DNA of 64,000 nucleotides, from the NCBI GenBank assembly GCA_002245135.1, contig NGBS01000311.1, positions 62,001 to 126,000 on the forward strand, given 5' to 3'. Positions within the stretch are counted from its first letter, which is position 1. Each line of letters opens with the position of its first letter. The DNA comes from Proteromonas lacertae. Its lineage: Eukaryota. The position numbers and the translations under genes are program-made. Positions 20,767 to 63,440 of the stretch are shown here, in pieces. The notes beneath the pieces were generated by a model. That model did no database searches. It worked only from the letters and a program-made list of their open reading frames with translations, and was not told where the DNA came from.

Positions 20767-21558
20767 ATGGTTTATTTATTTATATTACTGATTATATGCC
20801 TTTCTATGTTTGTTATTATTTTATTGCAATATAGTAACAAAAATAGATTTGATTTAAAGAAATTTGTCGTAAATAAAGAGATGAAGAAAGAAATATCATC
20901 ACTATTATCAAGTTGTAATACACAAAATAAAAATGAAAGTGAAATATACAGCCAAGGAGATTATGTGAAATTTATGAATAATTTGTCTTGTAAGTGTAAA
21001 GGAATTGGATATTGGGGTGGATTTTGTTTAAATAAAGATAGAATATATGTGGGAGGTAATCATGAGCATGATGTTGGTTTAGCAAATATCTTAGCAGAGA
21101 TATTTCAAAACAAAACGGTTGTTGATTTGGGATCTGGTTTAGGATGGTATTGCCCAATTATATCTAAAAAATCCAAAGTGTGTGATCAATATGATGGATC
21201 AGTTAATATAGAAGAAGCTACTAATGGTAGAGTTAAATATTTAAATTTAGCTCAGCCAATAGAGTTTGATTGTAATTATGATATAGTAATGTCACTTGAA
21301 GTAGCTGAACATATACCACAAACATATGAAGAAGTATATGTGAATAATCTTGTAAAGTGTAGTAGAGAAGGAATACTAATAACATGGAGTAGAATTGGTC
21401 AAGGAGGACATTTTCATGTAAATAATAAAGATAGAAATGATGTAATTAGATTATTTGAGAGTAAAGGATTGAGATATATAAATGAAACTACTTACATGAT
21501 AAAAAATACAACAAAAATAGATTGGTTGAGGGATAATGTATTATATTTTTCAAAATAA
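20767..21558 (+). CDS. Type II membrane class I SAM-dependent methyltransferase
   Basis: N-terminal TM; VVDLGSGLG, SLEVAEHIP, GQGGHFHVN. Confidence 0.85.
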   Translation: MVYLFILLIICLSMFVIILLQYSNKNRFDLKKFVVNKEMKKEISSLLSSCNTQNKNESEIYSQGDYVKFMNNLSCKCKGIGYWGGFCLNKDRIYVGGNHEHDVGLANILAEIFQNKTVVDLGSGLGWYCPIISKKSKVCDQYDGSVNIEEATNGRVKYLNLAQPIEFDCNYDIVMSLEVAEHIPQTYEEVYVNNLVKCSREGILITWSRIGQGGHFHVNNKDRNDVIRLFESKGLRYINETTYMIKNTTKIDWLRDNVLYFSK

Positions 21559-21585
21559 CATCTCTCTCACTTTGTTATAGAAGTA
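20874..21585 (+). repeat. 712-bp inverted repeat, arm 1
   Basis: Reverse complement of 30902-31617, apart from a few substitutions and one 4-nt insertion. Confidence 0.95.
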
Positions 21586-30901: not shown

Positions 30902-31617
30902 TACTTCTATAACAAAGTGAAAGAGATGTTATTTTGAAAAATATAATACATTATCCCTCAACCAATCTATTTTTGTTGTATTTTTTATCATGTAAGTAGT
31001 TTCATTTATATATCTCAATCCTTTACTCTCAAATAATCTAATTACATCATTTCTATCTTTATTATTTACATGAATATGTCCTCCTTGACCAATTCTACTC
31101 CATGTTATTAGTATTCCTTCTCTACTACACTTTACAAGATTATTCACATATACTTCTTCATATGTTTGTGGTATATGTTCAGCTACTTCAAGTGACATTA
31201 CTATATCATAATTACAATCAAACTCTATTGGCTGAGCTAAATTTAAATATTTTACTCTGCCATTAGTAGCTTCTTCTATATTAACTGATCCATCATATTG
31301 ATCGCAGACTTTGGATTTTTTAGATATAATTGGGCAATACCATCCTAAACCAGATCCCAAATCAACAACCGTTTTGTTTTGAAATATCTCTGCTAAGATA
31401 TTTGCTAAACTAACATCATGCTCATGATTACCTCCCACATACATATATTCTATCTTTATTTAAACAAAATCCACCCCAATATCCAATTCCTTTTCACTTA
31501 CAAGACAAATTATTCATAAATTTCGCATAATCTCCTTGGCTATATATTTCACTTTCATTTTTATTTTGTGTATTACAACTTGATAATAGTGATGATATTT
31601 CTTTCTTCATCTCTTTA
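30902..31617 (-). pseudogene. 5'-truncated copy of the SAM methyltransferase (inverted repeat arm 2)
   Basis: Lacks the TM; TGT>TGA near 31495 and a 4-nt ATGT duplication near 31441; residual 171-aa ORF. Confidence 0.85.
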
Positions 31618-40157: not shown

Positions 40158-42443
40158 ATGAATAAAAATTGCAAACTAGACGAGAATTGTATAAAATCGG
40201 ACCATTCCATAATTAATACATACAAAAATCTGAGTGTAGATGATAAAGAAAAAAACAATCAAGAAATTAGTCTAAAATCAAGATCAAGTAAATCATATAA
40301 AGATGTTATTGCCAATTTAGACTGCATTTCTGATGAAATGGATTTACCAACAGTTGAATATCCTGATTCTGCATATAAATCCAATCCGTATGTAGAAGAA
40401 AGAATGGATGATAATATACGTTATTTGAAAGGAAGAATACCATCTCCAAAGTGGAATAAACTTATAGAAAGCACTGATAAACATTTTTCTGGAAATTCCT
40501 CAAAACCTTTACCATTAACTTCAATGCAGGAAGAACCACATCACTCACCTGAGAATAAGAATGAAAGTAAAAGAGAAGTGATAGAATGGATTGCAATAGG
40601 AGATCATTCATATGTAAAATCCGATTATGATATATATTCATATTTAGAGAAATATCTATCAGCTGAAGAAATGTCAAAGAAATATAAAATATCGATGTAT
40701 GAATGGCATGATTTATTACAATCTCATAATCCAGATAAGATAAATATTGCTGAAGAAGATAATGAAAGTGAAAGAGAAGTGATAGAATGGATTGCAATAG
40801 GAGATCATTCATATGTAAAACCTGATTATGATATATATTCATATTTAGAGAAATATCTATCAGCTGAAGAAATGTCAAAGAAATATAAAATATCGATGTA
40901 TGAATGGCATGATTTATTACAATCTCATAATCCAGATAAGATAAATATTGCTGAAGAAGATAATGAAAGTGAAAGAGAAGTGATAGAATGGATTGCAATA
41001 GGAGATCATTCATATGTAAAACCTGATTATGATATATATTCATATTTAGAGAAATATCTATCAGCTGAAGAAATGTCAAAGAAATATAAAATATCGATGT
41101 ATGAATGGCATGATTTATTACAATCTCATAATCCAGATAAGATAAATATTGCTGAAGAAGATAATGAAAGTGAAAGAGAAGTGATAGAATGGATTGCAAT
41201 AGGAGATCATTCATATGTAAAACCTGATTATGATATATATTCATATTTAGAGAAATATCTATCAGCTGAAGAAATGTCAAAGAAATATAAAATATCGATG
41301 TATGAATGGCATGATTTATTACATTCTTATGATCCAAATAACAAAAAATCAGATGATAAAAATGAGATTAAAGATAAAAATGAAGAATATGAATGGATTG
41401 CAATAGGAGATCATTCATATGTAAAATCCGATTATGATATATATTCATATCTAGAGAAATACTTACCAGCTGAAGAAATGTCAAAGAAATATAAAATAGG
41501 TCTATATGAATGGCATGATTTATTACATTCTTATGATCCAAATAACAAAAAATCAGATGATAAAAATGAGATTAAAGATAAAAATGAAGAATATGAATGG
41601 ATTCAAATTGGAGATGATGCTTATTCAAAATCTGATTATAATGACTATTCATATCTAGAGAAATACTTACCAGCTGAAGAAATGTCAAAGAAATATAAAA
41701 TAGGTCTATATGAATGGCATGATTTATTACATTCTTATGATCCAAATAACAAAAAATCAGATGATAAAAATGAGATTAAAGATAAAAATGAAGAATATGA
41801 ATGGATTCAAATTGGAGATGATGCTTATTCAAAATCTGATTATAATGACTATTCATATCTAGAGAAATACTTACCAGCTGAAGAAATGTCAAAGAAATAT
41901 AAAATAGGTCTATATGAATGGCATGATTTATTACATTCTTATGATCCAAATAACAAAAAATCAGATGATAAAAATGAGATTAAAGATAAAAATGAAGAAT
42001 ATGAATGGATTCAAATTGGAGATGATGCTTATTCAAAATCTGATTATAATGACTATTCATATCTAGAGAAATACTTACCAGCTGAAGAAATGTCAAAGAA
42101 ATATAAAATAGGTCTATATGAATGGCATGATTTATTACATTCTTATGATCCAAATAACAAAAAATCAGATGATAAAAATGAGATTAAAGATAAAAATGAA
42201 GAATATGAATGGATTCAAATTGGAGATGATGCTTATTCAAAATCTGATTATAATGACTATTCATATCTAGAGAAATACTTACCAGCTGAAGAAATGTCAA
42301 AGAAATATAAAATAGGTCTATATGAATGGCATGATTTATTACATTCTTATGATCCAAATAACAAAAAATCAGATGAAATGAAAAATGATATAGAAACTAA
42401 AAAGTGTAAAAAAGTTGTTGAAGATAGAAGTATTACTGTATGA
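40158..42443 (+). CDS. Tandem-repeat protein (9 x 67-68 aa), paralog of the giant gene
   Basis: 761-aa ORF; shares the PDSAYKSNPYVEERMDDNIRYLKGRIPSP block and the repeat domain with 42763. Confidence 0.8.
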   Translation: MNKNCKLDENCIKSDHSIINTYKNLSVDDKEKNNQEISLKSRSSKSYKDVIANLDCISDEMDLPTVEYPDSAYKSNPYVEERMDDNIRYLKGRIPSPKWNKLIESTDKHFSGNSSKPLPLTSMQEEPHHSPENKNESKREVIEWIAIGDHSYVKSDYDIYSYLEKYLSAEEMSKKYKISMYEWHDLLQSHNPDKINIAEEDNESEREVIEWIAIGDHSYVKPDYDIYSYLEKYLSAEEMSKKYKISMYEWHDLLQSHNPDKINIAEEDNESEREVIEWIAIGDHSYVKPDYDIYSYLEKYLSAEEMSKKYKISMYEWHDLLQSHNPDKINIAEEDNESEREVIEWIAIGDHSYVKPDYDIYSYLEKYLSAEEMSKKYKISMYEWHDLLHSYDPNNKKSDDKNEIKDKNEEYEWIAIGDHSYVKSDYDIYSYLEKYLPAEEMSKKYKIGLYEWHDLLHSYDPNNKKSDDKNEIKDKNEEYEWIQIGDDAYSKSDYNDYSYLEKYLPAEEMSKKYKIGLYEWHDLLHSYDPNNKKSDDKNEIKDKNEEYEWIQIGDDAYSKSDYNDYSYLEKYLPAEEMSKKYKIGLYEWHDLLHSYDPNNKKSDDKNEIKDKNEEYEWIQIGDDAYSKSDYNDYSYLEKYLPAEEMSKKYKIGLYEWHDLLHSYDPNNKKSDDKNEIKDKNEEYEWIQIGDDAYSKSDYNDYSYLEKYLPAEEMSKKYKIGLYEWHDLLHSYDPNNKKSDEMKNDIETKKCKKVVEDRSITV
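40570..42376 (+). repeat. Coding tandem array with periods 201 nt (x3) then 204 nt (x5)
   Basis: EW codons at 40584, 40785, 40986, 41187, 41391, 41595, 41799, 42003, 42207. Confidence 0.95.
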
Positions 42444-42762: not shown

Positions 42763-45700
42763 ATGAGTTTTTACACCTCTCCTACTTCTTATGGTCGAAG
42801 CAGATCTAATTTAACAAACTTGTCACCTAATAAAAATTTGGCTCATACTACACCATCTAAACGCTTCTCTATTCCAAATTCTTTACAAAAACCAGTCTCA
42901 CCAAATTTGGAAGTACCAAAAATTGAAGCTATTGTGTACAAGCAAAAATATCCCACTTTATATGATAAGTTTGTTAAAGAAAATAGGGAACAACAAATTA
43001 GACTTCAATCAAGATCAACTGATCCATATAAAGATACGACTGTGTATCCAGACCATCACTTATCATATAAAAAAGATTTACCAATAGTCGAACATCCTGA
43101 TTCTGCATATAAATCCAATCCGTATGTAGAAGAAAGAATGGATGATAATATACGTTATTTGAAAGGAAGAATACCATCTCCAGAATGGAATACACTTGTC
43201 GAAACAACTGAGGAACAATTGTCTCATAATCCACCAAATCCCTTACCATTACCATCAATGCAGGAAGAACCACATCAATCACCTGAGAATAAAAGAGTAC
43301 ATGATTTATTACAGAATAAATATCATCAATCAACACCAAGTAGTATAACAAAAACCAAAACAGTTACAAATAACAACTGTTATAATAATACTTCCAATTT
43401 AACATCATTATATCATAATAATAATAATAATAATAAATCACCATTTACAGTTGGATATTCTAAAAACATTCCTACATATCCACCAACAAACTTAAATCAT
43501 AGTAATTTGAATAGTGAAAGAGAGAAATTGAGTAATTTAGAAAATACTATATTTACTTCTACTCCAACAAAGCCATATAATAATAATAATAACTTACAAT
43601 CATCACCATTTTCACCATTAGAAAAGAGTAAAATATCACCTGATAATCGATCAATATCTGTAACTCCAGAAAAGAAAAGACAATATGAGAATAATAATCC
43701 GCATATTTCACCAACCAGCAACTTCTGGAATAAAATGAAATCACCTCAATTAGAGCGACAGGAATATAAATCAAGAAATAATCTAACTAAGAAATCTGCA
43801 TTTGATAAACCTGATAATGATACAAGTATAATAGTGTTAAGAGGAAGAATATTCAAAAGATCTGACTATAATACAAATGAAGAAGATTTAAAGTTATTAA
43901 ATGATAAAGAAAAATCACTTTTATATAAAGTAACACCATTTGAATGGAATAAAATGATTAGAGAAGCAAAAATTAAGAAAGAAAATGAAAGAAAAAGATC
44001 AGAAAATAAGTTACCATTTCTGACTAAATATGTTAGAAGTGATTATATAACAGATTTAGAAATAGAAAATAAGATGACAGAGGAAGAAAGAAATATGAAA
44101 TATAATATATCACCATCAAAATGGAATAAATTAGTAGGTGATAAAAGATTGGAAAATGAAAATAAGAAAATGGAAAAACCATCACCAAGACAGTATCTAT
44201 TTGGCCAATCTAAAAAACCAAATCCTGATATATTATATGATAAAAACAAACCATATGATTTGACTGAGCAAGTGATGATCAATGACACTATATTTAACAA
44301 GTCACAGTGGAATGATGATCCTTTAATTGAGAGATTATTAAGTGAAGAAGAAAGAAAGAACAAATATAAAATGACTCCTTCAAGATATAATAGATTATTA
44401 GAAGATAAAGTAATTCAACATGAAAGGTTAAATAATAATAATAATAAAGTGAATATTAATGGAGTTTTATATGATAAATCTGAATATAAAACAGATGAAG
44501 TTATAGAATCATATATGAAAGAAGAAGATAGAAATAATAAACATAAAATTACTCCTTCTCAATGGAATAATATATTTTACAGTACAGAACGTATTCATAG
44601 AAATGAAATAAGATCAAAAACAACAACACCAATTCCAACAACAAATAAAACAACAACTGCTACTGTAAGACCTCAACAATCAAAAACACCTTCATTCAAA
44701 CCTTATAGTTCATCTAATGATTATTATGATAAAAATAAATACACAACAACTCCAGAACTAGAGAGAACATTATCTACAGAGCAATTACAAATGAAAAATA
44801 AAATGTCACCAACAAAATGGAATAAATATGTGTATGAAGAGATAGAGAAAAAAGATAGAGAAATGATGAAAGAGAATAATAATAAGAAATTAACTCCAGT
44901 GCCTTCTCCTCCACCAATACCATTAAATAAAGTAACTGTGAATGGAAAAGAGTATGATAAAGAAGAATATGAAAAACATAAACTACTGGAAAAAGATTTA
45001 CCTTCAGCAATGAAAGATAAGAAATATAAAGTTACTCCAAATGAATGGGAAAAGATACTGTTTGATAATCTCAATAATCAACAGAAGAATCAACAAAAAT
45101 ATCTACAACACCTTCAGCAAATCAATAAGAATGAACCAGAAAATGAAGAAAAGAAAGATAAAAGTTGTGATAATAAAGAAACACCAATAAAATCAAAGTA
45201 TCTTTTCAGTAAATCACCAAAATTTCAAAATGAAACAGTTAAAAAAGGAATGGAAAAAGTGAATGTAGATAATGAAGAACATCATAAATTTGAATATTTA
45301 ACAAATACAAAAATAGAAAATACATTATCTCCAGAACAAAGGGATAATAAATACAAACAAAAACCATCAGAATGGAATAATACAATAAGAAATAAACAAA
45401 GAGAAATGATAAATAAATCAACACCTCCAAAAACATCATATTTATCTTCTTCTTCTTCTTCTTCTTCTTCTTCTTCTTCTTCTCTCTCTGATTTATTAAC
45501 TCCAACAAAAAATATACTATTGAAAAATGAAAAATACAAAGATTTAACTAAATCATTATCACCTGAAGTAAAGAAGAAAATAAGAGAATTATCGCCAGCA
45601 ACATCTACACTTTCCAAACTTGTGAATGAAAATAAAATTAGAAGTAAAACTGAACCAAAGAAATCGAATCATTCTAATGATGATTATATTCATGTTGGAG

Positions 45701-48700
45701 GAGATGTATATAAACTATCAGAATATGATAAATATTCATATTTAGAACAATATCTATCATTTGAAGATATGAAAAAGAAATATAAAATACCAATGTTAGA
45801 TTGGCATGCTTTATTACAATCTCATAAACCCAAAAGCACAGTATCAGATAGTCTAACAGATAATAATGTTAGTAATGAGAAAAAGTATGATGAATCAGAA
45901 TATGATTTATATAGTGGGCTTGAGATAGGCTTGACAGATGAAGAAAAGAAGATGAAATATAAATATACACCAACTGAATGGGGGAATTATTTATTAAGTA
46001 GAACAAAGAAAGAAACATCTCCACATCCACCACAAGAGGATGTAATTCCACAGAATAAAGAACAATTTACTCCAAAAGAAAAAGAAAAAGAAAAAGAAAA
46101 AAATGAAAAACACTACGATAAAAATGACTTTGTGCCAGTTGGAAAATCAAAATATTTTGCTTATAAATGGAATAATGATGAAGAAATAGAAAGGTTATTA
46201 AATGAAAATGAAAGAAAGATGAAATATAATGTAGTTCCAGAGATATGGAATAAATTACTTCAAGATAAGAAGAAAGAAATGAAAGTAAAACAAAAGACAG
46301 AATCTCCATTGCTTACACAACCAAAAGTGTCTAAAGATACAATTATTAGTGATAGTGACAGTAATAATGATGAAAATGAAGAAGTGAAACAATTACCATA
46401 TAAATTTACAATCAAAGGAAAGAAAATGGAAGATAATAAGAAGGTTGATATACCAATAAGATCAGAATCAGCACCAGTAATGAACAATAATAATGTTTCA
46501 ACAACAAAAGTAAATGAAATGGTAAAAGATATTACTAAATCATTAAAACGAAAATCATTAGATGAAATTAAAATAGATGGAAAAGTATGTCATCCATTGG
46601 AATGGAAAACTGATGAAGAAATTGAATCTAAAATGAGTAAAAGTGAAAAGGATTTGAAGTATGTAATATCTCCAAATGAATGGAATAAATTCTTAATGGA
46701 TAAAAAGAAAGGACAAAACGAAAAACAACAATTACCACCACCACCAACAACAACAATAAAAGACAATAAAAACACAATTGTGTTGGATAAAAAAGAGAAT
46801 ATAGTTAATAACAATAAGAAAGTAGATATTCCTCCAAGATCTGAATCAACTCCTGTTGTGAAGAAAGAAAGAGATAAATTTGAAAGAGTGGAAGTAGATG
46901 GGAAAAAATATTCTGTATCATTGTGGAATAATAATGAAGAGATAGAAGCTCAAATGGATAAAAGTGAAAAAGAATTGAAATATGTTATTACTCCATATCA
47001 ATGGAATAAATATTTAAGAAATAAGAAGAAAGAAATTGAAGCTAAGAAATCAGTCTTATCTAAACCAGCAATTATACAAAACCAAAAAGCTGATAGTGAA
47101 AAGAAAGAAGATGAGAATAAAGAAGAAGATAAGATTGAATTAGTTCCAGTTGAAGATATGTTTGGAGGAATCTCTATTAATAATGAAAAATATTATGATT
47201 ATGAATATCACAGCAATAATTACATTGAGTCACAAATGACTGAAGAAGAAAGAGGTAAAAAGTATAAAATCCCACCAAAAGAATGGAATGATTTTCTAGA
47301 AAAGAAATTGAAAGAAATATCCAATAGATCCTTCAAGAAGATAGAAGAAAAAATAATCAAAGAAAAAGAAAAGATAAATGATAATATGAGTGATAATAGA
47401 ATCAATGAAATGTCAGTAAATGTTGATGATGATAAATCTAAATTAACTCCAAGTATGATAATACCAACAACTGCTAATAGAGATAGTACAAAACAAAAAG
47501 AAATAAAAAACATTATTAATAGTCATATGTTGAATATGAATGAAGAAAATGAAGGATATATCACAATAAAAGATAAAAACAATGAATTACATAAATACAA
47601 AAAGTCACTTTATGCAAGCGATTCACTAGCTGAAGGAAATATGAGTGAAGAAGAAAGGAAGATGAAATATAATGTAGATCCAAGTGATTGGAATAAATTA
47701 GTGTCTAAAAGAAGAGAAGAGATTAATAAAATGATTTGCACTACTGAAGAAGAAAGATCTATATTTAATTCTTTATCTTCTGCATCATCATCAATTTCAT
47801 CATCATTGTCATATTCCAGTGCTAGACAGAATGAGAAAGTGACAGTAAATGGAAAAAAGTATCATAAATCATCATATGAGACTAATGAAGAGATAGAGAA
47901 CAAAATGAATGAAGAAGAGAGGAATAAAAAGTATAAAGTAATGCCATATGAATGGAATAAAATATTAAAGAATAAAAAAGAAGAATTTTCAAAGAAAAGT
48001 ACATCCAATATTTTCAACAATAATAATCTTAAACCATCTCTTATACAATCTCAACAACAACAACAACAACATGAAATACCTTTACCACCTTCAGAATCAC
48101 ATTTATCATCAAGTTTACCAACATATAATACAAAACTAAGTAGGAATAACAACAATAAAATAGTGAATGATTATAATGATGATAATAAAGTAACAATAGT
48201 GGATGATTATGGAAATGTTAAAACATTTGATAAGAATTTATATCATTGTGATGAAGAAATTGAGAGTAAAATGAGTAATGAAGAAAGATTAAACAAACGA
48301 AAGATGACTCCTGGTAAATGGAATAAATACTTAGAAGATAAAAAGAATGAAATATCAAAACAACCACAAGAATCAATTAACAATGAATCTAATAAAATTA
48401 CACTAGATGGAAAGATTTATGACAGAAATGAATGGATTACAAACTCTTCAATAGAAAGACTTCTAAGCGAAAGTGTAAAAGTAAAGAAATACTCAATAAC
48501 TCCATCACAATGGAACAAGATTATTGAAACAAAGAAAGCTAGTCTAGAAAATCCTACTCATCATAAACCATATAGTGGTATGAAAAAAGAAGAAGAAGAA
48601 AAAATAGAAGTAAAAAAGGAAGAATATATGAATGATGATGAAGTTGAAAATATATTAAGTAGAGAAGAAAGAGATAAGAAATATAAGATTCCAGCTGTCG

Positions 48701-50540
48701 AATGGAATAGAATGATAAGAAAAAAGAAGAATGAATTGAATGATTTAAAGAATTCCTTAAAAGATGATAAAGATAAAGTAATGGTAGATAATATTACTTA
48801 CATGAAGTGTTTATGGAATAATAATGATGAAATTGAGTTATTAATGAGTGAAGAAGAAAAACAAAAGAAATATCTTATGAGTCCATTTAGATGGAATAAT
48901 TTCTTAGCAAAGAAAACAAAGGAGATAGTAAGTGGAAATCTCAATAAACCAATTAAAGAAGAAGAGAACAAAAATAAAAGCTCAACAATTAGAAATAAAC
49001 ATGATATAATAAAAATAGATGGTAGAATATATTTTGGAAATAATTATCATGATGATGAAGAAGTTGAATCTCAACTAAATGAAAGTGAAAGAAAGTTGAA
49101 ATATGTAATAACTCCAATTGAATGGAATAAACTACTTGAAGATAAAAAGAAAGAGATTGAGAAAGTAGCAAAGAAAGAAGTTGAATTATCACCACCACCA
49201 CCAAAAGTGAAAGATAATGCAAAATCAGTTATTAAAGATGATAATGATGAAGATGTTTTAGTGTCAAAATATAAATCTTATAAGAAAGAGAATGAGAATA
49301 AGTCTATTCCATCAAGATCACACTCTGCTCCAGTGGTAAAGAAAGAGAGAGATAGAATGGATAAAATAAAAATAGAAGGAAGAGAGTATAGTGCATTTTT
49401 ATGGCATAATAATGAGCAAATTGAATCACAAATGAGTGAAGAAGAAAGACAGTTGAAATATGTAATACCTTATTCAGAATGGAATGTATTTTTGCAAAGA
49501 AAAAAGAAAGAAATTGAGAATATACGAAAGGAGAAAGAACCACATATTACACCAATCACACCAAAACCAACTTTTTCCATTGATAAGAATGATATATTAA
49601 ATCCTCCAACTCAACCAAAACAACATACTATAGTAGATAATAATAATAACTATTATAGATTCAATACTCCAACTAAAAGTCGTGATTATCTTGTTGATGC
49701 TGATAATGATAATGATAAAGTAAAAATTGAAGATGAAGATGGAAATATCAGAGTTTTTGACAAGAATTTATATCATTCTGATGAAGAAATTGAGAGTAAA
49801 ATGAGTAATGAAGAAAGATTAAACAAACGAAAGATGACTCCTGGTAAATGGAATAAATATTTAGAAGATAAAAAAGAATGAATTATCAAAAACCACCAGA
49901 AAAGGCATTAGGTAAAAACCACCACTATCACCACCTCCACCACTTCAATTACCATCAAGCCAAGCCAATCAGAATTATAAAATTGAGAATGATATTAGCA
50001 ATCATTTTATTTATGAAAAGAAATTAGATAGTAGTAATGATTATAAAATCGATCCATTCCCTGTTCCTCCTCCTCAACAACAACAACCGTTGAAAAGTAA
50101 ATTTGTTAAGCAAGTATTATATTTGTGTATTTATTGTGTATTATCATAGATGCTAAATGAAGAACCACTTGTTAGAGATGAATATATCAGTTATGTGTGG
50201 AGATATTTGAAATTTGATTTACAAAAGATGAAAGACTATGTGGATTTATTATTTCCTAGAACTTTAACTGATGCTGATTATAATGAAATCAGGAACAACC
50301 CCAAAGCAAAGTTAGCAATTTTAAAATCCTTGTATTTATATCTAAAATCAATTGGAATTAATTTAAACAAGTATAAATTGTAAATTTTAATATTATAGAG
50401 ATAAATGTGAAGCTTCATCAGATAAAGATACACATAATTTCAAAGATTATAGTTTTAGAAAAGTGAATAAATTCTTAGAAAGTTGTGGAATGACATTTTA
50501 TAATGATATTGTTATGAATTCTATCAGTAATAATCATTAA
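42763..50540 (+). CDS. Giant (~2,500 aa) protein with ~22 dispersed copies of a ~45-aa KY-x-x-P-x-x-W-N domain
   Basis: ORF 42763-49881; continues past homopolymer indels at 49870-49920 and two short introns to TAA 50540. Confidence 0.8.
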
Positions 50541-51015: not shown

Positions 51016-52333
51016 ATGTCCTCAGAATCCAAAACAATCTACCATTTGACTGGTTTTACCCCATCTTTGGAGCCAGATCGAGTATCTTATAATATTTATG
51101 TCAATAGATAAGACAGCTTTTCACTAATAATTATATAAATGTCAAAGCGATATTTTTATCTGAATTAATCACCACATCAAACAGTATTTAAGTTTTTTCT
51201 ATTATTTAGGTGAGTGTTATGTTTGTACAAATAATGAAGAGACCAGTAAAATGTTTGAATCTCCTTATATAAACGTAAGACTCTCTGATATCGTATATTT
51301 CTATTCTTTATAAAAATATCTAGTGTCAATCCACAATTGAGGTTGAGAATATAGGTATTGGTAATTTAGAAGAAATTGGCAAGCACTTATTAGTCAAGAA
51401 TGTTCCAAAAATCTCAGATCGATTAATTAGAGATAAATTCACAAAGTATGAAGGATTACAAGAATTAATCTTCTTAAACGAAATGCATCCAAATACAAAC
51501 CAGTGTATAAGCATCCTATTAAGGTATGATCAACAATTATCAGGTTTAAATGTATATTGTACAATGAACAACCAGCCAATTATATTAGTATAAATATATA
51601 GATTAGTAATTATAAATATATAGGGTGAAACTCCACTACAAATCTCATTATTATCTCAATCAAGATTTACTACATTATCATCGTCGTTCTTCTTAGATCG
51701 ACAAACAGAATCATCATCGTATGTGCAACAATCACCAGAACCATTAAACTCACCAAATCACCCACAACAACAACAACAACAGCAACAACAACAACAACAA
51801 CAGAATAATAATTCAACTCAAGCCAATAGATTATCAGCAAACAGTGTTCCATTTTACCCAAGTAACTTCACAGTCAGTACAATTGGTAGCAATAATAATA
51901 ATCCCAAAGATAACAATGCATCAACACCTGAAGAATTAAATGATTGGAGACAAAGAGCATCTTCCTACAATTCCTCTGCTGTTCATGGTAGTTTCACTGA
52001 TTCAGAAGAGCCAATACCTCCACCAATATCAACAGTAGTACATTCTCAACCAGCCAGTAGTATCAGCTCACCAGTTTACTCATTTACACGACACTTACAT
52101 CAATCATCAGCACATTTCTATCCACAAATGCAATTACCACCTATTGCACAACAACCAAACCAACAACAACAACAACAAATACCTCAGATTACACGTTCAT
52201 ATAGTCATAATTATGAATATTCACCAGCATTACAATCTCAATTATATGCTACTCAATATGGTCAATTATCACCACCATTACAATATATTCAACCACAACA
52301 AATGCAACCATCACCATTACCACCATTAGCTCC

Positions 52334-52364
<31 letters not shown>

Positions 52365-53384
52365 CCTCAATTATCACCATATTCTCAATCACCTTATGGT
52401 AGTAATAATGGAAGTAGTGGCATTAGTATAATAGGTAATAATGGTATGGTAAGTCCATATCAATATTCAACACCTAATTCAACATCGTCACCAACAACAC
52501 CTGGTATAATAAGTAACAATCATTTACCACCACCACCATCTTCATCAATACCATCTCAACAACAATTACCAATACCACTGTTAGCACCACAATATACTAG
52601 TCAAACTCCACCATCTTATCCACAATATATTAACAACAATAATAATCCTAATAATATATATCATAATCAATATATTAGCACACCATCATCAGCAGCTAGT
52701 TCACCATTTATTACTGGTAATGATACTCCTAATAGTTATACAAGCAGTGGTGTTTGTTCACCTGTTGATATAGATTACAATAACTATTTATATTACAATA
52801 ATAGTGGTCAAAGTATAGTTTCAATGATGAGTAATATGATAATTGATCCTAATAATAGTAATAATGGTAATATGAATAATTCAATACCTTCTCCACATGG
52901 TATAATGCAACAATCACCACTACAACAGTCACCACTTCAACAAGCACAACAATCTCAACAACAATTACCTCCACCTATACCTCAACCTGGTGGTATTGCG
53001 TATTTACCGATTAGAGCAAATCCTGCTCCTGTTATGAATAGAGATTATGAACTTCCTAGTGGATTATCGGCTGGATCTTGTGGTGTTGGTTATGATCCTA
53101 ATAGAGAAGGACCACCAGGTGCTAATTTGTTTATATATAATATTCCCAAGACTTATGGTGACTTACATCTTTATCATGCCTTTGAAAGATTTGGTACAAT
53201 CTTAAGTGCAAAAGTGTTTATTGATAAACCGAGTGGTACGACAAGAGGTTTTGGTTTTGTGAGTTTTGGTTCGCCAGAGAGTGCTCAAATGGCAATTCGT
53301 GAGATGAATGGTAAGACGTTAGAAGGTAGAAAAATTAAGGTTGAAATTAAGCGTAGAGATGCAAATGATGATAATGGCAAATAA
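51016..53384 (+). CDS. RNA-binding protein with a CELF/Bruno-type C-terminal RRM and Q/P/N-rich region
   Basis: REGPPGANLFIY (RNP2), SAKVFIDK, RGFGFVSF (RNP1); several 5' micro-introns. Confidence 0.8.
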
Positions 53385-53578: not shown

Positions 53579-54873
53579 ATGAAGTTTTTATTGGTAAGTC
53601 TACTTATATATAGTTTGTGTCATGCAGCATTGTGTCCTAACATGTGTAGTGGACATGGTACTTGCTCAAAATCTGGCACCTGTGTGTGTAATCCTTCATT
53701 TACTAGTGGTGATTGCTCTGAACGTATATTTACTCTGAATAATTTTATTTTAGGTGTATGTCCTTATGGACACCCATATGTTGATCCACTTGTGAAAAAA
53801 GATGAACCAAACGAAGCATTACATAGTTTCTTGGAATGTTCAGGTCAGGGTGAATGTGACAGAGCAACTGGAATTTGTACATGTCATCCAGGTTATACAG
53901 GTGATGCTTGTCAAAGAGAAAGATGTCCAAACGACTGTAGTGGACATGGTGTATGTACAGCAGTAAAATATATGACATACCACAATGGTGTTTATGAGGA
54001 GGTGGATGATCCTTATGGTTATTCTTTCTGGGATGGAGCACAGTCTCATATATGTAAATGTGATGATGAATATACAGGTTATGACTGTAGTGAGAAGAAG
54101 TGTGCTATTGGTTATATGAGTTTAAGTGATTGTGATACTCCACTTGATGGAAATACACAAACTATTAAGATAGAAGTGAAAGTGAAATTCAATTAATTTT
54201 ACAACTGATTCTACTAAAATTAATGCATTAATGGGATATTTACAATATACAGATTCATTTGGAAGAGTTTGGTTTAGTGATGCTTTTAATTTCTTAAGTA
54301 CAAAAGATAAAGATTTATTATTAGATGTTAATAATAAAGCAAATTATGTCCCTTATAAACTTAAAGGATGGTGGACAATATTAAATAGTTTCCCACCAGG
54401 TACAATCAATGTAGAAAAAGTTGAAATATATAATGGTGATGGATTAACTGATATGTATTTCATCAACTGATGATAAAAAAGATTGTAATAAAAAACCTGA
54501 AGATATTAAAATAACTGCTACTTACACAATTCGTTATAACATATGGTCCACATCAAACAGGCAGTTATAGTGATAATATTGAAATATTAACACCAAAAGA
54601 AGTAGGAGAAAGATCATCAGGATTTGATGGTGGTTATCATGGATTATCATCAAAATCCAATTCCAGGATGTTTATATGAATCAAAAGAATGCAACAAACA
54701 AAATTGAACTAGCAACAGATTATGAAATAAAAGAATTGACAATTCAAACAACAATCATTCCACCACCAACAAAATGTTCTGGAAATGGCATTTGTGATAC
54801 AACAACTGGATTATGTACTTGTTTCACTGGATATTACGGTCTAGCATGTACTGAACAAGCTGCATTATTATAA
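53579..54873 (+). CDS. Secreted EGF/tenascin-like protein (several apparent frameshifts)
   Basis: Signal peptide; CPNMCSGHGTC, ECSGQGECD...GYTGDAC, terminal CSGNGICDTTTGLCTCFTGYYGLAC. Confidence 0.75.
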
Positions 54874-54954: not shown

Positions 54955-57900
54955 TTATTTATAAGATCCAAATGATATATTCTTCCACTTATTAAATATA
55001 TTCGATTTATACTGCAAATCACTCAAATCATTCTTAATCTTATCATCCAAGTCATTTCCATCATTATTCATCCCAGGATATGATAATATCATTGATTTAT
55101 ATTTATTCCTCTTATTATAACCTTTAGAAGCATAAATCTTCCATGATAAAAACACTAATTTAATCATCTTATATCTCCAATGAAAGAATGCTTTTCTGTT
55201 TTTACTTTCTCTAATTGATTTTTTTGTTGTATATTCCTTCCAATTATTAAATACTTTCAACAAACATTTCTTCTTCCAATATTTAATATATTTCCTTTCA
55301 TAGTAATATTTATTTTTCTTCCTTATAATCCAATTCTTCCATTTATTTAATATATATCTTTGTCTTTCTTCTTTTGTCATATAGGAATAAATAAATCGAT
55401 TAATATATTTCTTATATTGTAAAACATTACATCTTAACTTTGATAGTTTATTCTTCATTTCTATTACATCATTTTCTTCTTTCCATTTTTCATAATACAA
55501 TTTCAATTGATTATTAATTCTATACACTTTAAACTCCTTATATCTTTCTCTCATTTCTTTATTATAATCAGTAATATATTTCAATTGATAAATAGCTCTT
55601 CTTTGTAGATTGATATCACCAATTTTATCTAATTCATTAAAATACTCTTTCTTTTGATTTCTATATTTTATATACTCTTTATATTTCATCCAGTAATAAT
55701 ACATTGTAATTCTCTGGAATATTGGATATAAAGCTAAGAATAATTGCCTTTGTTTGTCTTTATATAGTTTATAATTCCTCCATTCTCTTAATATCATCCG
55801 ATGTAATTGTTTAGTGTAAATGTTCTTTATTTTAACTTTGTGATATTTCTCTAGTATCAAATATTGAATTCCTAATTTCCATTTCTTAAAGAAAGTAGAT
55901 TTCATATTGATCTCATAATATTCAACAGCCATTCTATAGTTCTTATTATCAACAACATTCTGTTTAAAACTATTAAAACATTTAAATATTAAATTATTAT
56001 TATATAATCTATCACAATGTTGATATATTTGTCTTTCTTCAGTTTTGTATTGATGATATAATTGCCATTTATTCATACATATATGTAATGTTTTAATATT
56101 TTGATTGTGACTGTATATACATAACTTATAATAGTCTTTCATATAATTGAAATATTCAGATTTTATCTTGTTATTATATTCCTATCAGCAACTCTTCACA
56201 TTTTTCTTTTATCTCTTTTTCATGGTTTTTATATTCGATAAATAACTGTAAATACTTCTTCATTATCTTTAAATCACTAAATTCTATTGCTTTATTCATA
56301 TTTTCATTATTTTTTCTTCTCTTTAACATCCCATTTCTCAATCTATCAATCAATTTCATTAACTTCTTTCTTTCATATTTCATGTAGAATTCCTCCATCC
56401 TTTCTTTCTTCTCTATACTCTTTTTAGCATAATTATTCCACTTAGATAAATATCTTTTAATGGTATATTCTTCATAAAACTCTTTTATTGGTATTTTTCC
56501 ATATTTCTCTTTATATTGTTTTGATTTATTTGTATATTCAATCCATCTTTGAATATAATTACTCATTCTAAACAACTGAGCTGTATGTTTCATATGGTTT
56601 TCCTTCTGTTTCTCAATGTAATTGTATTTCCATATTTTATAATATCTTTGCTTTAATATTGTATTATAACGGTTTATTGCTTGGTATTCTTTATTTTTAT
56701 TTTGTTTGATTATTTTGACATTTTCTCTCCATTCTTTTAACCATATTTTCTTTATATTCTTACAGTGAATTGAATATATTTCATTATATTTTCTTTTATA
56801 GAGTAATTCTTTATACCAAATTTGAATATATTTCCATCTTCTTTCATTCATTATCGTCTTCTTTTTTCTTCTCAACTAATAATAATAAAATAATAAAAAA
56901 TATAATAATATATACAATTTTCATTTTCTGTGATGCTTGATGCCAATTCATCAATATTTTATGTGTAAATTCATTCTTATAGATTGTATCAACATGTTGT
57001 GTCACGATCTGAGTATGATGTTCTGTAACGGTACTATTTCTCCAATAATCCAAAATATGTTTGACTAAAGCTTGATTATGTTTTGTATTGAATCTTTCAC
57101 CTCTTTCATTTAAGATACTTAGTTTGTGTGAGATTAAATTCCATTCAATCATTACTTTTCTTAGTAATTTAGTGAGATAATAATATCTTGATCTATCTGA
57201 AGCTTGATCTTGTAATAACATATATTTGGCATGATTTTTAAACAGTTTAAAACTATTTAATAATAAATATAAAAAATATATATAATATATATCTATACTA
57301 TTTTTTCTTCATAATCTTATTATTATGATTAATAGCTAAATAATTCAATTCTTTATATCTCTTTGATATATTCTTAAAAGATAGCCAATACTCTAAATAC
57401 CTCTTTTCTTTCCATTTCAATATAACATTTCTTATTTCAACTTGACATTTTCTATATTTCTTCATTGTATTAACTTCTTCTCTCCATTTGTCGAAGATTA
57501 TTTCTAATTTTGCTTTCTTTTTCTCCTTTTGAATAACACTAATCATCTTTTCTTTTTTTACTTTTCTTTCTAAGTAATATATCTTCCAAGCTTCAAAATA
57601 TCTGTTAATAAAGAACTTGTAGGAACTATTCAAATAAATAATAATAAATAATAATAATATATATATATATACTTTAATATATTTATTCTATTTCTCACTT
57701 TATTCACTGTATATGTAATTAATTCTTTAATTGCCCTTCTTTTAGTCTGTTTCTTACTGTATTTAATAGCTTTCTATAATAAATTAAATGAATAATAATA
57801 ATAATATATATATTTATACTCTATATAATCCATGTTTATCATAATCATTAATAACATTATACCAACAATGGAAATAATATTTCAATCTCTTATCAAGCCG

Positions 57901-59878: not shown

Positions 59879-61504
59879 ATGGCTAGTATAATGATTATTT
59901 TTATTTTCATAGGCAAAGGAATAGATATAAAGAAAGAATTAGGGGTTGGAATTGAAGGTGATGAAGAAACTGTAGTTACTCGTTTACATAAGTTATATGA
60001 GTCGAAAATCAAACCATTAGAAAAACAATACATGTTTGATAGATTTTATCAACCACTTATGGATGAAAAGGATTTTCATTGTAAACCTCAAGTTTTACTG
60101 ATTGGACAATACTCCGTTGGTAAAACCTCATTTATCCAGTTCATGTTGGAAAGAGACTTCCCAGGAGCAAGAATTGGTCCAGAACCAACCACAGATCGTT
60201 TCAATGCAATTATGTATGGTGATGAAGAAAGAGTAGTGCCAGGTAATGCAGCAGCCATGTCAGCAGAGTTTCCTTTCTCTAATTTAACCAAATTCGGTAC
60301 AGGTTTCTTAAATCGATTTGAAGTTGCTCAATTACCTAGTCCAATATTAGAAAAAGTATCATTCATTGATACACCCGGTATTTTATCAGGTGAAAAGCAA
60401 AGATTAGGCAGAACTTACGATTATGCTGAAGTAATTGAATGGTGGGCAGATAGAGTAGATAGAATCTTATTATTATTTGATGCCCACAAATTAGATATTT
60501 CTGATGAGTTCAAATTCGCCATCGAGTCATTACGAGGAAATGATGACAAGATCCGTATTATATTGAACAAAGCTGATTCAGTAGATCAACAACAATTAAT
60601 GAGAATATATGGTGCATTGATGTGGTCCTTAGGCCGTGTTATTACCACTCCAGAATCATTGAGAGTGTATTTAGGATCATTCTGGGATAAACCATTGAAA
60701 TATAAAGATTTTGAAGCTTTATTTGCAGTAGAACAAAGAGATTTATTCTCTGATTTAAGAAACTTACCTAGAAATGCAGCTGTTAGAAAGATTAATGATT
60801 TAGTAAAGAGAGTGAGATTAGCTAAAACACATGCATTATTATTAAGTAGATTAAGAAATGAAATGCCAAAGATGTTCGGTAAAGAAAAGAAGAAGCAGGA
60901 GTTAATCGATGGAATGTTGGAAATATTCAGAAGTGTACAGACTGAATATAGATTACCCGCCTCCGATTTTCCACCATTAGAGAAGTTTAAAGAATTATTA
61001 CAAGCTCATGATTTCACTACATTCCCTAAATATGATAAGAAATTATTTGATGCAATGGAAGAAGCTTTAAGTCAAGATATTCCTCAGTTAATGAACAACT
61101 TACCATCAGCTACAAAGAAGGCAGAAGGTGAAGAAGAAGATGATGATGACAAAGCAGCAGCTGATAATCCATTTGAAACACTTACTTTAGAAAAGCATGT
61201 AACTTGGATTATTACTCCATCAATGAAAGAAGAATCTGATGCAATATTTTCTACACTAAGACAGAATAACGGTAAGATATCTGGTTCTATAGCGAAGGAT
61301 GTAATGATGAAAAGTGATTTACCACAAGAAGATTTGAGAAAGATTTGGCAATTAGCTGATATTGATAAAGATGGTAAATTTGATAATAGTGAGTTTGCTG
61401 TAGCTATGTTTTTAGTGAATATGAGAGTGAAAGGTGAAGAATTACCTGATAAATTACCTGAATCATATATTCCACCATCTAAGAGAGGAAAGAGTAAGAT
61501 TTAG
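59879..61504 (+). CDS. EHD: EH-domain-containing dynamin-like ATPase
   Basis: GQYSVGKT, IGPEPTTDRF, DTPGILSGEKQR, NKAD, NPF, C-terminal EH domain; 27-nt intron 59886-59912. Confidence 0.95.
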   Translation: MASIMIIFIFIGKGIDIKKELGVGIEGDEETVVTRLHKLYESKIKPLEKQYMFDRFYQPLMDEKDFHCKPQVLLIGQYSVGKTSFIQFMLERDFPGARIGPEPTTDRFNAIMYGDEERVVPGNAAAMSAEFPFSNLTKFGTGFLNRFEVAQLPSPILEKVSFIDTPGILSGEKQRLGRTYDYAEVIEWWADRVDRILLLFDAHKLDISDEFKFAIESLRGNDDKIRIILNKADSVDQQQLMRIYGALMWSLGRVITTPESLRVYLGSFWDKPLKYKDFEALFAVEQRDLFSDLRNLPRNAAVRKINDLVKRVRLAKTHALLLSRLRNEMPKMFGKEKKKQELIDGMLEIFRSVQTEYRLPASDFPPLEKFKELLQAHDFTTFPKYDKKLFDAMEEALSQDIPQLMNNLPSATKKAEGEEEDDDDKAAADNPFETLTLEKHVTWIITPSMKEESDAIFSTLRQNNGKISGSIAKDVMMKSDLPQEDLRKIWQLADIDKDGKFDNSEFAVAMFLVNMRVKGEELPDKLPESYIPPSKRGKSKI

Positions 61505-62657: not shown

Positions 62658-63440
62658 ATGAACTCTCCAGATCACAATTCTGATGGTTCAAACGTCGGGT
62701 CAAAACATGCATCGCCAGGTGGCACTCCCTTACACAACAGTTTTCAACATGAACCTCCTTCAGCTCAACTAGCCAATGGCATACCCATCTTAGCAAAATT
62801 CAAAGAGACAGAAAATTTAAGAAAAGACTCAATAACAAAATTAAGAGAACAAATGGATCCTAACAGAAAACTCTCTGCTTTCAATGCCAAGAATGCTCGT
62901 TTAGGTTTCTTACATAAAAAGTCAACTTTGGAAGAAGAAGACGATGATGATGCTGAAGGTTTCATCATTAAGAAATACAAAGCTTTAGTGAATGAATTAA
63001 CCCCAGAAGAAGTAGAAGAATTCAAAGCTGCCTTTGATAAAGCAGATCCAGATCATACAGATAACATATCTTTAGCACAATTAGAAAATGCTATTCGATC
63101 TATGGGTCACAATCCAACACAACAGGAGATGAAGGATATTTTAGCACTGGCAGATCTTGATAAATCAGGTACTGTGTCTTACCAAGAATTTCTAACACTA
63201 ATGGCTTTACAAATGAAACAACCTTTCACCGAAGAGGAATTATTAGCTGCATTTGAATTGTTTGATTTAGAAGATGGTGAAGCTGAAGGTGTAGTTGATG
63301 CTGAGATGATGAAACAAGCAATGATTGATTTATTACCAAATACTACAGAAGAAGAGATTAATGAGTTTATAGCATCAACAGAACCTGATGAGAATGGTCA
63401 GATAGATTATATTAATTATGTAAAGAAATTAATATCTTAA
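62658..63440 (+). CDS. Calmodulin/centrin-like EF-hand protein with an N-terminal extension
   Basis: LTPEEVEEFKAAF, SMGHNPTQQE, DLDKSGTVSYQEF, DENGQIDYINYV. Confidence 0.85.
   Translation: MNSPDHNSDGSNVGSKHASPGGTPLHNSFQHEPPSAQLANGIPILAKFKETENLRKDSITKLREQMDPNRKLSAFNAKNARLGFLHKKSTLEEEDDDDAEGFIIKKYKALVNELTPEEVEEFKAAFDKADPDHTDNISLAQLENAIRSMGHNPTQQEMKDILALADLDKSGTVSYQEFLTLMALQMKQPFTEEELLAAFELFDLEDGEAEGVVDAEMMKQAMIDLLPNTTEEEINEFIASTEPDENGQIDYINYVKKLIS

Follow-up and report, generated by a model that had tools for sequence, protein, structure and literature searches.

The gene at 42763–49881 raises two questions: to which family, if any, the repeated module of its giant product belongs, and what a protein made of so many copies of that module might do. 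Within the window, i.e., the whole stretch of 64,000 nucleotides analyzed here, a single open frame on the forward strand (42763–49881) comprises 2,372 codons followed by a TGA and encodes 2,372 amino acids, in DNA of ~25% G+C from an AT-rich eukaryote with introns of ~30–50 nt.

The repeat array and its linkers

ORF translation and profile searches place 23 repeat units and their linkers in this frame. A profile built from the protein's own units returned 24 rows, of which 23 (15–75 bits) were kept and the last (aa 64–78, -4.0 bits) was dropped. A second, independent profile, for which only the ten units of three relatives (see below) were used, recovered all 23 units at E ≤ 1e-3 (19.5–63.8 bits), vs. 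one match at this threshold, with a best score of 6.8 bits, in 50 shuffles of the giant protein. The repeat is real. An earlier, sequence-only reading had described about 22 copies of a domain of ~45 aa and had suggested that an HMM be built from the units; the repeat and the profile check held up, but the numbers require correction to 23 copies of ~55 residues.

The units are given below with their positions on the forward strand, their residues, and their bit scores with the self-built and the relatives' profile, in that order. The array opens with a degenerate unit 1 (43093–43218, aa 111–152; 15.2, 19.5), which sits in an N-terminal block common to the giant protein and its upstream paralog and groups with paralog unit A1 (100/100). 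It continues with units 2 (43834–43986, aa 358–408; 30.8, 41.1), 3 (44002–44163, aa 414–467; 66.2, 46.0), 4 (44263–44424, aa 501–554; 75.0, 42.7) and 5 (44440–44604, aa 560–614; 69.8, 47.1), with unit 6, degenerate in its hairpin half (44695–44856, aa 645–698; 57.1, 21.9), and with units 7 (44923–45087, aa 721–775; 60.3, 46.7) and 8 (45250–45414, aa 830–884; 66.6, 47.0). Unit 9 (45688–45828, aa 976–1022; 23.9, 27.3) is, among the giant units, nearest to the one that the upstream paralog has amplified, and forms a clade with the paralog units (100/98). Units 10 (45856–46017, aa 1032–1085; 58.7, 28.4), 11 (46120–46284, aa 1120–1174; 68.3, 33.8), 12 (46558–46719, aa 1266–1319; 73.5, 42.1), 13 (46876–47040, aa 1372–1426; 72.7, 50.9), 14 (47164–47325, aa 1468–1521; 70.1, 49.6) and 15 (47566–47730, aa 1602–1656; 62.1, 42.5) precede unit 16 (47830–47994, aa 1690–1744; 74.1, 63.8), which was modelled with AlphaFold2. 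The remainder consists of units 17 (48202–48360, aa 1814–1866; 71.8, 28.8) and 18 (48388–48552, aa 1876–1930; 70.4, 51.7), unit 19 with a shortened hairpin (48598–48741, aa 1946–1993; 31.5, 41.2), units 20 (48769–48930, aa 2003–2056; 72.9, 46.3), 21 (49000–49164, aa 2080–2134; 74.6, 47.4) and 22 (49357–49521, aa 2199–2253; 61.8, 44.4), and unit 23, shortened by the TGA (49729–49878, aa 2323–2372; 62.4, 25.1). Median pairwise identity among the units is 29% (253 pairs); units 17 and 23 are recent twins with 83% identity, and the DNA of the unit 23 region (49697–49874) is 89% identical to 48167–48344. The highest mean hydropathy (Kyte-Doolittle) reached by any 19-residue segment is 0.40, and the protein starts with hydrophilic residues, i.e., by this measure the protein contains neither a membrane-like stretch nor an N-terminal signal-like segment, in agreement with what had been read from the sequence.

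The linkers are rich in K, S, N, P, and T and carry 186 K+R vs. 139 D+E. They contain 34 SP/TP sites vs. 18.9 ± 3.7 expected from 1,000 shuffles, which confirms the S/T/P/N-rich linkers with many such sites noted earlier. Their lengths are irregular (0 to 194 residues): most units are set apart by 17–86 residues, whereas seven junctions have linkers of only 0–5 residues, and the giant protein is therefore not "beads on a string" throughout, as the sequence-only reading had it, although that description fits most junctions. The domain family at this locus is new, whereas its beads-on-a-string layout is familiar. Mode I 14-3-3 sites are described as RSXpSXP (PMC6770128), and the giant protein contains four putative sites of this kind, judged by the motif R-S-x-S/T-x-P alone: RSKTEP (45640–45657), RSESAP in a conserved linker block (46459–46476), RSESTP (46837–46854), and RSHSAP (49315–49332), all found on the forward strand by motif scan. 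Only 0.12 are expected and none of 2,000 shuffles reached four; one further site occurs in the relative P0001. However, three of the four lie within mutually homologous linkers (E 3e-11 to 3e-5) and are copies of one ancestral block, and thus do not constitute independent evidence.

Relatives and predicted fold of the unit

A second family member lies directly upstream. Profile and sequence comparison identified a paralog of 761 aa (P0016; 40158–42443, forward strand), in which an N-terminal block 66% identical to aa 72–177 of the giant protein is followed by nine near-identical units. A single unit has been amplified nine-fold here, forming a tandem array (40584–42376, forward strand) with a period of 204 nt, 8.8 copies and 96% matches, and a six-frame scan with the family profile gave ten matches within this paralog. 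Family membership is indicated by the recognition of giant and paralog units with profiles from other members (23/23 units and ten matches, respectively). Pfam matches of the paralog ORF to phage tail terminator, CoA ligase, and GH59 C-terminal families were rejected as artefacts because of the near-identical repeats, no single stretch passing alone.

Outside the window, relatives are few. A profile search of 1,835,955,588 representative sequences yielded three proteins at E ≤ 1e-3 (4.7e-86, 8.1e-18, and 7.7e-17), all unnamed, which we refer to as P0001, P0002, and P0003 and which hold six, two, and two units, respectively; P0003 is 243 residues long. Word-indexed searches with residues 350–2372 among proteins of similar length, and with the unit alignment among longer proteins, found nothing among ~8,000 candidates each, which is weak evidence. 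Five ORFs of the window had no exact match in the protein collection, the ESM Atlas offered no usable match for a two-unit stretch or for the C-terminus of P0003, and JGI metagenome contigs gave no match with a six-unit alignment or with P0003; a search of the literature on orphan repeat domains returned nothing relevant.

Comparison with Pfam-A identified no family on the whole giant protein at E ≤ 1. When units were searched individually at E ≤ 10, a scan limited by HMMER filters that discard most matches above E~0.1, 13 weak families appeared, each matching one of the 23 units. A PDB sequence search with the unit found no match. Structural comparisons of the unit model were similarly negative: Foldseek against the PDB returned six rows with a best E of 5.0, a wide search of 48,161 chains gave no fold match (best Z 3.4), and a fold search of BFVD reached a best E of 1.8. 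These results support the earlier suggestion from the sequence that the unit falls outside the catalogued families, and no solved structure matches it by sequence or by fold.

The unit of ~55 residues has the consensus V/I-x-V/I-(N/D)-G-x-x-Y, Y/W, E-I-E, L/M-S-E-E-E-R/K, K-Y-x-I-x-P-x-x-W-N-K-x-L-x-x-K. An alignment of 27 units (17 of the 23 giant units and ten from the relatives) upholds the consensus proposed earlier, with K34, P39, and an aromatic residue at position 16 in 27 of 27 units and E23 and W42 in 26. AlphaFold2 modelled unit 16 with a pLDDT of 90.0 and a pTM of 0.72 (87.9–90.0 pLDDT across the five models), from an alignment of 23 units that are all paralogous and derive from one protein. 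Strands are predicted at unit residues 6–9 and 12–15 and helices at 23–28, 31–34, and 42–59. The unit is thus predicted to fold on its own as a β-hairpin packed against three helices, which matches the earlier expectation of a hairpin plus helices; the proposed check by AlphaFold and Foldseek gave this hairpin-helix model and no fold match in the PDB. The conserved aromatics Y11, Y/W16, Y35, and W42, together with E23, K34, and P39, would make up the core around which each small module folds autonomously. Mean charge per unit is -2.9 in helices 1 and 2, +2.0 in the loop and +1.4 in helix 3, and each module may represent a charge dipole with acidic helices 1 and 2 and a basic loop and helix 3. 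Should the unit fold as predicted, it is a new small domain for which neither Pfam nor the PDB offers a relative by sequence or structure and 1.84 billion proteins offer almost none. It would then be a candidate for a new entry, as family or fold, in the classifications, and protein design might make use of so compact a module that tolerates repetition.

Possible roles of the giant protein

We favor, at slightly less than an even chance, the view that a self-folding domain without database match, present in 23 copies, makes up what is likely a long intracellular multivalent scaffold with phospho-regulated linkers. We infer the scaffold role from the architecture alone, which would suit a number of alternative roles just as well. 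The cytoskeletal or cortical scaffold, or multivalent binder under proline-directed phosphorylation, that the sequence-only reading had suggested would likewise be a reading of the architecture. With so many modules carried on flexible, basic, S/T/P-rich linkers, each molecule would provide many equivalent binding sites, and the SP/TP sites and conserved RSxSxP blocks of the linkers would act as kinase and 14-3-3-type switches. A more specific version, which we put forward tentatively, holds that the unit is an undescribed autonomous domain that founded a family confined to a barely sampled eukaryote lineage, that this family grows as single units are amplified in tandem, and that its proteins read a repeated or polymeric cellular ligand multivalently, with linker phosphorylation as a switch. 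The features of the proposed domain are four conserved aromatics, an invariant lysine, a near-invariant glutamate, and a hairpin plus three helices. The family is lineage-specific and still expanding, as seen in the nine-fold unit amplification in the adjacent paralog and the recent internal duplication, and its investment in an otherwise compact genome suggests an important structural or organizing role. Other observations count against this reading: amplification of 96%-identical units, as in the paralog, is more typical of fast-evolving than of conserved structural proteins, and the frame is broken just 5' of the C-terminal domain.

Several known systems share parts of this architecture. 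Plakin (plectin) and ankyrin repeats are 33–38 residues long and pack against one another in a single solenoid or globule. The giant protein resembles them in that a β-hairpin followed by helices recurs many times, as in these very large intracellular scaffolds. However, its units have ~55 residues each, should fold individually according to the prediction, and in most cases have a linker between them, whereas plakin and ankyrin repeats are stacked. The single-unit model combines the hairpin with three helices vs. two antiparallel helices in plakin repeats, no plakin occurs among the structural matches listed, and neither plectin/plakin nor ankyrin families match the giant protein or its units in Pfam. 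As in nebulin and titin, tens of copies of a small module alternate with phosphorylatable linkers and multivalency arises by repetition, but the modules are unrelated, the spacing is irregular where that of nebulin is regular, and the nebulin and titin families occur widely and are well documented, unlike the present family with its three relatives among 1.84 billion sequences. Sfi1 likewise has many repeats, each with a helix tryptophan followed by a basic residue; these repeats join into a single uninterrupted helix that lacks both hairpin and proline, and the Pfam Sfi1 model matches an ORF at 56174–56872 but neither the giant protein nor its individual units.

It is unlikely that the protein serves as a ruler or cross-linker of filaments, with the last helix of each unit binding an actin or microtubule subunit and the array running along or bridging filaments. 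Nebulin repeats and villin-type headpieces are the models for such binding. The villin headpiece consists of two short helices, the first of them acidic, and a longer last helix that follows a proline and bears a tryptophan and then a lysine cluster. The giant unit shares the short-short-long order of helices, the proline ahead of the tryptophan helix in the AlphaFold2 model, the lysines after the tryptophan, and the acidic first helix, and its last third (P-x-x-W-N-K-x-L-x-x-K-K-K) resembles the tryptophan-plus-lysine crown of the headpiece; the presence of 23 equal units without a membrane segment also accords with filament binding. In contrast to the headpiece, the unit has an N-terminal β-hairpin, a longer loop before the proline, a last helix of 18 residues, and P-x-x-W in place of P-x-W, and 23 copies of it stand in tandem where the headpiece is a single C-terminal domain. 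The VHP profile of Pfam, assuming that the headpiece model is present in the library, matched neither the whole protein (E ≤ 1) nor any of the 23 units (E ≤ 10), and no headpiece occurs among the six Foldseek rows from the PDB or in the top 50 rows that the wide search listed (best Z 3.4), although families beyond those rows may remain. The spacing of the units is irregular, linker length varying from 0 to 194 residues, and is a poor fit to a ruler.

The basic last helix and linkers could alternatively bind RNA or DNA, with the units coating or condensing nucleic acid as in a chromatin protein. A net basic charge is indeed found in helix 3 and the loop before it, as in the linkers, and lysine clusters look like putative nuclear targeting signals. 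This role has a low probability, however: whole units are neutral (251 K+R vs. 255 D+E), no nucleic-acid-binding family was matched in Pfam or in the PDB sequence search, and no helix-turn-helix or similar fold is found among the structural matches listed. We also see little likelihood that the protein is a fast-evolving, lineage-specific repeat protein of an inter-organism interface, antigen- or effector-like, in which repeat number outweighs any binding function. The very narrow distribution, the two adjacent family members, one of them holding 8.8 copies that are 96% identical in DNA, the recent duplication that produced units 17 and 23, and the compact AT-rich genome with very short introns would fit such a protein. 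However, the giant protein has no signal peptide or membrane anchor, and most of its units are old by their median identity; these diverged units retain the same core residues, which indicates a constrained fold.

The 3' end of the gene and its surroundings

The sequence-only reading had placed the end of the gene at 50540, but the frame closes at the TGA at 49879–49881, and a model that extends to 50540 requires at least two single-base frame changes at A-runs (49870–49918) plus two mini-introns. This frame-break zone on the forward strand contains three A-runs, and comparison with the paralogous copy at 48100–48520 reveals one extra A directly 5' of the TGA and another 15 nt further on. Since the giant ORF keeps its frame through 67 A-runs of at least five nucleotides, the interruption may be genuine, with the gene possibly in decay at its 3' end; it represents either an assembly error or a true truncation. 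Three ways of rescuing the frame were rejected. Read-through of the TGA meets a TAG ten codons later; splicing from the GT donors at 49844 and 49912 to any AG, read by hand, keeps the TGA or enters the TAA at 49913–49915; and Euplotes-style +1 shifts at 49879 lead into a wrong frame.

Coding scores nevertheless indicate that the DNA beyond the TGA is still coding-like as far as 50540; all of the following elements are on the forward strand. A proline/glutamine-rich, linker-like stretch of 66 open codons in the +1 frame (49916–50113) scores +51.3 bits, at the level of the giant frame itself (38.8 ± 7.0 in in-frame windows vs. -39 ± 31, maximum 30, in non-coding windows). It is followed by a putative, frame-preserving mini-intron of 36 nt with GT...AG borders (50114–50149), similar in style to presumed introns of 29, 32, 35, and 52 nt in neighboring genes, and by an exon for a C-terminal helical domain (50150–50379; +30.8 bits). 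The product of this exon matches the C-terminus of P0003 (BLASTP E = 2e-10, 32% identity over 65 aa), which was also the sole match in a word-indexed search; the best E of the C-terminal alignment in a profile search of the PDB was 0.12, and the AlphaFold2 model is all-helical with poor confidence (pLDDT 56.7). In P0003 a single frame covers units and domain, whereas the window has array and domain in different frames; P0001, P0002, and the upstream paralog lack the domain in their predicted forms. Shared with the two-unit relative P0003, the domain would anchor or pair the molecule. A second candidate mini-intron, read from the sequence (50380–50398; 19 nt, or 28 nt with an alternative donor at 50371), would shift the frame by +1 into a possible last exon of 46 codons (50399–50540, TAA at 50538–50540; +23.6 bits), for which no homolog was found and which is the weakest element of the full-length gene model.

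That the array is the remnant of a decaying gene without functional full-length product, as the early TGA that follows a single-base deviation from the paralogous copy, the further frame changes within 50 nt, and the 67 long A-runs that the assembly keeps in frame elsewhere might suggest, is highly improbable, as 2,372 codons are still open in DNA of 25% G+C, all units retain the conserved core residues, and the downstream pieces are still coding-like (+51.3, +30.8, and +23.6 bits), so that any break would be very recent or an error.

The upstream paralogous repeat gene, the 3' frame break, and the shared C-terminal helical domain had not figured in the sequence-only reading. Searches for tRNAs and Rfam families had no match within the window. 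The Sfi1-like ORF at 56174–56872 (Pfam Sfi1, E 3.5e-07) lies 6 kb downstream of the giant gene.

A repeated module with a predicted fold

The giant gene is a single open frame (42763-49881, forward strand; 2,372 codons, TGA stop, translation table 11). A self profile made from 17 units chosen with a regular expression returned 24 rows on its protein, of which 23 scored 15.2–75.0 bits, and the 24th (−4.0 bits) was left out of the unit count. Because such a profile is circular, a second one was built from relatives only (10 units from three unrelated-source proteins, none from the giant). This independent profile recovered all 23 units with E ≤ 1e-3 (19.5–63.8 bits), against one match at that threshold and a top score of 6.8 bits in 50 shuffled giant proteins, so that the repeat, as judged by sequence comparison, is real and far beyond chance. 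An earlier, sequence-only reading had proposed about 22 copies of a domain of about 45 residues; the repetition is borne out by the 23 copies found, and the length is corrected to a measured span of about 55 residues. Pairwise identity between units has a median of 29% (253 pairs) and a maximum of 83% (units 17 vs. 23), with DNA identity of 60–74% among most copies. Conservation was counted over 27 units (17 of the 23 in the window and 10 from relatives), which have in common a hairpin consensus V/I-x-V/I-(N/D)-G-x-x-Y, an aromatic residue at position 16 (27/27), E23 (26/27), L/M26, E30, R/K31, K34 (27/27), Y35 (24/27), P39 (27/27), W42 (26/27), N43 (23/27) and K49 (20/27).

The same reading had placed the unit in no recognised family and had pictured it as a hairpin plus helices, and both views agree with our results. 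Pfam-A yielded no family for the whole giant protein at E ≤ 1, nor for its first 350 residues or the pieces downstream of the TGA; the 23 units searched one by one at E ≤ 10 gave 13 weak families, each in a single unit, i.e., no recurrent remote signal. The best match of the unit profile to PDB sequences had an E value of 0.16. AlphaFold2 folded unit 16 with the 23-unit alignment at pLDDT 90.0 and pTM 0.72, predicting two strands (6-9, 12-15) and three helices (23-28, 31-34, 42-59). No known fold was recovered for this model with Foldseek against PDB (E no better than 5.0 in 6 rows, which match LIM domains over a short hairpin), in BFVD (best E 1.8) or among 48,161 chains in a wide structural search, where none reached Z ≥ 5 and the best Z of 3.4 is of the low order normal for a 60-residue model, so that these searches are no proof of a new fold.

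Only three proteins among all 1,835,955,588 representatives matched the unit profile at E ≤ 1e-3: P0001 (848 aa, six units, E 4.7e-86, cluster of 3 members), P0002 (296 aa, two units, E 8.1e-18, 6 members) and P0003 (243 aa, two units, E 7.7e-17, 6 members). Assembled reads of public sequencing runs are their sole source; all three are nameless, simple ORF calls, possibly pieces of larger spliced genes. Units 1 and 2 of P0001 pair with both units of P0002 in the unit tree (first pair 99/98). No further relatives turned up in word-indexed searches of up to about 8,000 candidates, in the ESM Atlas or in two metagenome scans.

Unit history and the 3′ end of the gene

When the window was scanned in all six frames, the unit profile gave 10 additional matches, all within the 761-residue paralog that adjoins the giant upstream (40158-42443, forward strand). 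The two proteins have an N-terminal block in common (66% identity over 106 residues, E 9e-33), in which the degenerate unit 1 of the giant sits, and in the paralog this block is followed by a tandem array with a period of 204 nt, 8.8 copies and 96% matches. The unit tree covers 38 units (23 from the giant, five of the paralog's 10 and 10 from relatives); in it, the paralog units cluster with unit 9 of the giant (100/98), units 17 and 23 form a pair (100/99), and units 11, 12, 13, 20, 21 and 22 form a clade (95/84), with no resolution elsewhere. Judged from the array and these groupings, the family has an old core, but genes, blocks and single units in it are still being duplicated.

The gene had been thought to run to 50540; its open frame stops earlier, at the TGA. 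The DNA at 49697-49874 and its copy at 48167-48344 are 89% identical; relative to this copy there is one extra A in a run just 5′ of the TGA and a second 15 nt on, and past the TGA the best coding frame switches twice in 40 nt. Codon log-odds, for which in-frame windows of the giant give 38.8 ± 7.0 and presumed non-coding DNA −39 ± 31 (maximum 30), reach +51.3 bits over 66 proline/glutamine-rich codons from 49916. Next come a 36-nt GT...AG segment and, scoring +30.8, 76 codons (50150-50379) that align with the C-terminus of P0003 (E=2e-10). A 19- or 28-nt GT...AG segment would lead into a possible last exon of 46 codons (+23.6), for which no homolog was found, ending in a TAA at 50538-50540. 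As P0003 carries this C-terminal domain after two units in one frame throughout, in the ancestral architecture the units were most likely followed by a C-terminal helical domain. The domain folds as all helical at a pLDDT of only 56.7 and has no match in Pfam, PDB or the Atlas. As assembled here, it is parted from the units by a minimum of two frame changes, each of a single base at an A-run. Since 67 A-runs of five or more leave the giant frame intact, three errors in 50 nt would be surprising, and assembly error and a genuine, very recent truncation are equally likely. Neither an intron nor read-through offered a working rescue of the frame past the TGA.

Linkers and possible function

Linkers, taken between 60-residue unit windows, span 0–194 residues, and seven junctions have 0–5 residues, among them four near-contiguous units at aa 1809-2059. 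They are rich in K/S/N/P/T and net basic (K+R 186 vs. D+E 139), and the units are neutral overall (251 vs. 255). The many SP/TP sites attributed to the linkers are confirmed (34 observed vs. 18.9 ± 3.7 in shuffles); a further 17 lie inside units, mostly as a conserved (S/T)-P capping the last helix. Linkers at aa 1175-1265, 1320-1371 and 2135-2198 are mutually homologous (E 3e-11 to 3e-5), with PPPP...KDN...IPxRSxSxPV(V/M)KKERD in common. The motif R-S-x-S/T-x-P, which PMC6770128 gives as the mode I 14-3-3 motif, occurs four times in the giant (shuffle mean 0.12) and once in P0001; three of the four sites derive from one ancestral block and are therefore not independent evidence. A perfect (TCT)13 run at 45445-45483 encodes a serine tract in a linker and is likely a site of length variation. 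By a simple 19-residue hydropathy test, no membrane span or classical signal peptide was found (maximum mean 0.40, hydrophilic N-terminus), as had been claimed from the sequence.

From this anatomy we tentatively favor an intracellular multivalent scaffold or adaptor. A unit would act as a small domain complete in itself, its core made of conserved aromatic and aliphatic residues (summed mean charge −2.9 in helices 1-2, +2.0 in the loop, +1.4 in helix 3), and 23 such modules on flexible linkers would offer many equivalent sites on one molecule. The putative intracellular site of action follows from the lack of a secretion signal; putative linker phosphosites, both proline-directed and basophilic, would serve as switches, and the C-terminal domain as an anchoring or pairing module. 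A filament-binding ruler is unlikely: P-x-x-W-N-K-x-L-x-x-K-K-K resembles the villin headpiece, but the profile and fold searches give this likeness no support. Nucleic-acid binding is improbable, as is, to the same degree, a fast-evolving interface protein, and we consider a decaying gene very improbable.

With tens of copies of a small module and regulatory linkers, the layout of the proposed scaffold resembles plakins, ankyrin-repeat proteins, nebulin and titin, whereas none of the membership tests run on the module itself placed it in a known family. We thus rate the module as a new domain family in an architectural style already known. Orphan repeat proteins are common among poorly sampled eukaryotes; distinctive here are a confident predicted fold without relatives, extreme rarity, 23 units and an expansion still under way.

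Genomic setting

The window DNA is eukaryotic, with about 25% G+C throughout, and its ORFs match Piwi/PAZ, EHD dynamin-like, Sec15, protein kinase, glycosyltransferase, Sfi1-like and EF-hand proteins. Exact look-up of five ORFs in a 15-billion-protein collection found none. Frame changes within conserved genes suggest AT-rich GT...AG mini-introns in the Sec15 gene (17638-17689, 52 nt), in the kinase gene (near 33650, 29 nt) and at 9900-10400 on the reverse strand (32 and 35 nt), where they part the upstream exons of the Piwi/PAZ (Argonaute-family) gene (8130-10016, reverse strand). Very short introns, 25% G+C and standard stop codons point to a compact, unusual eukaryote genome. The single-exon EHD protein (59879-61504, forward; dynamin-like, DUF5600, C-terminal EH domains) matches mammalian EHD4 structures at 565 bits and is strikingly animal-like for so AT-rich a genome. 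Directly downstream of the giant gene lie a glutamine-rich RRM protein (51723-53384, forward) and a teneurin-type EGF-repeat ORF (53579-54196, forward); an Sfi1-like ORF (56174-56875, reverse; Pfam Sfi1, E 3.5e-07) and a 260-residue EF-hand-pair protein (62658-63440, forward) are both at most 13 kb downstream. Elsewhere, an inverted duplication of a methyltransferase-like gene (20874-21585 and 30902-31617, copies 97–98% complementary; Methyltransf_23 matches in ORFs 20767-21555 and 30929-31441) flanks a glycosylation-gene block of about 9 kb with two Galactosyl_T ORFs, a GT92 ORF and a DUF1647 ORF.
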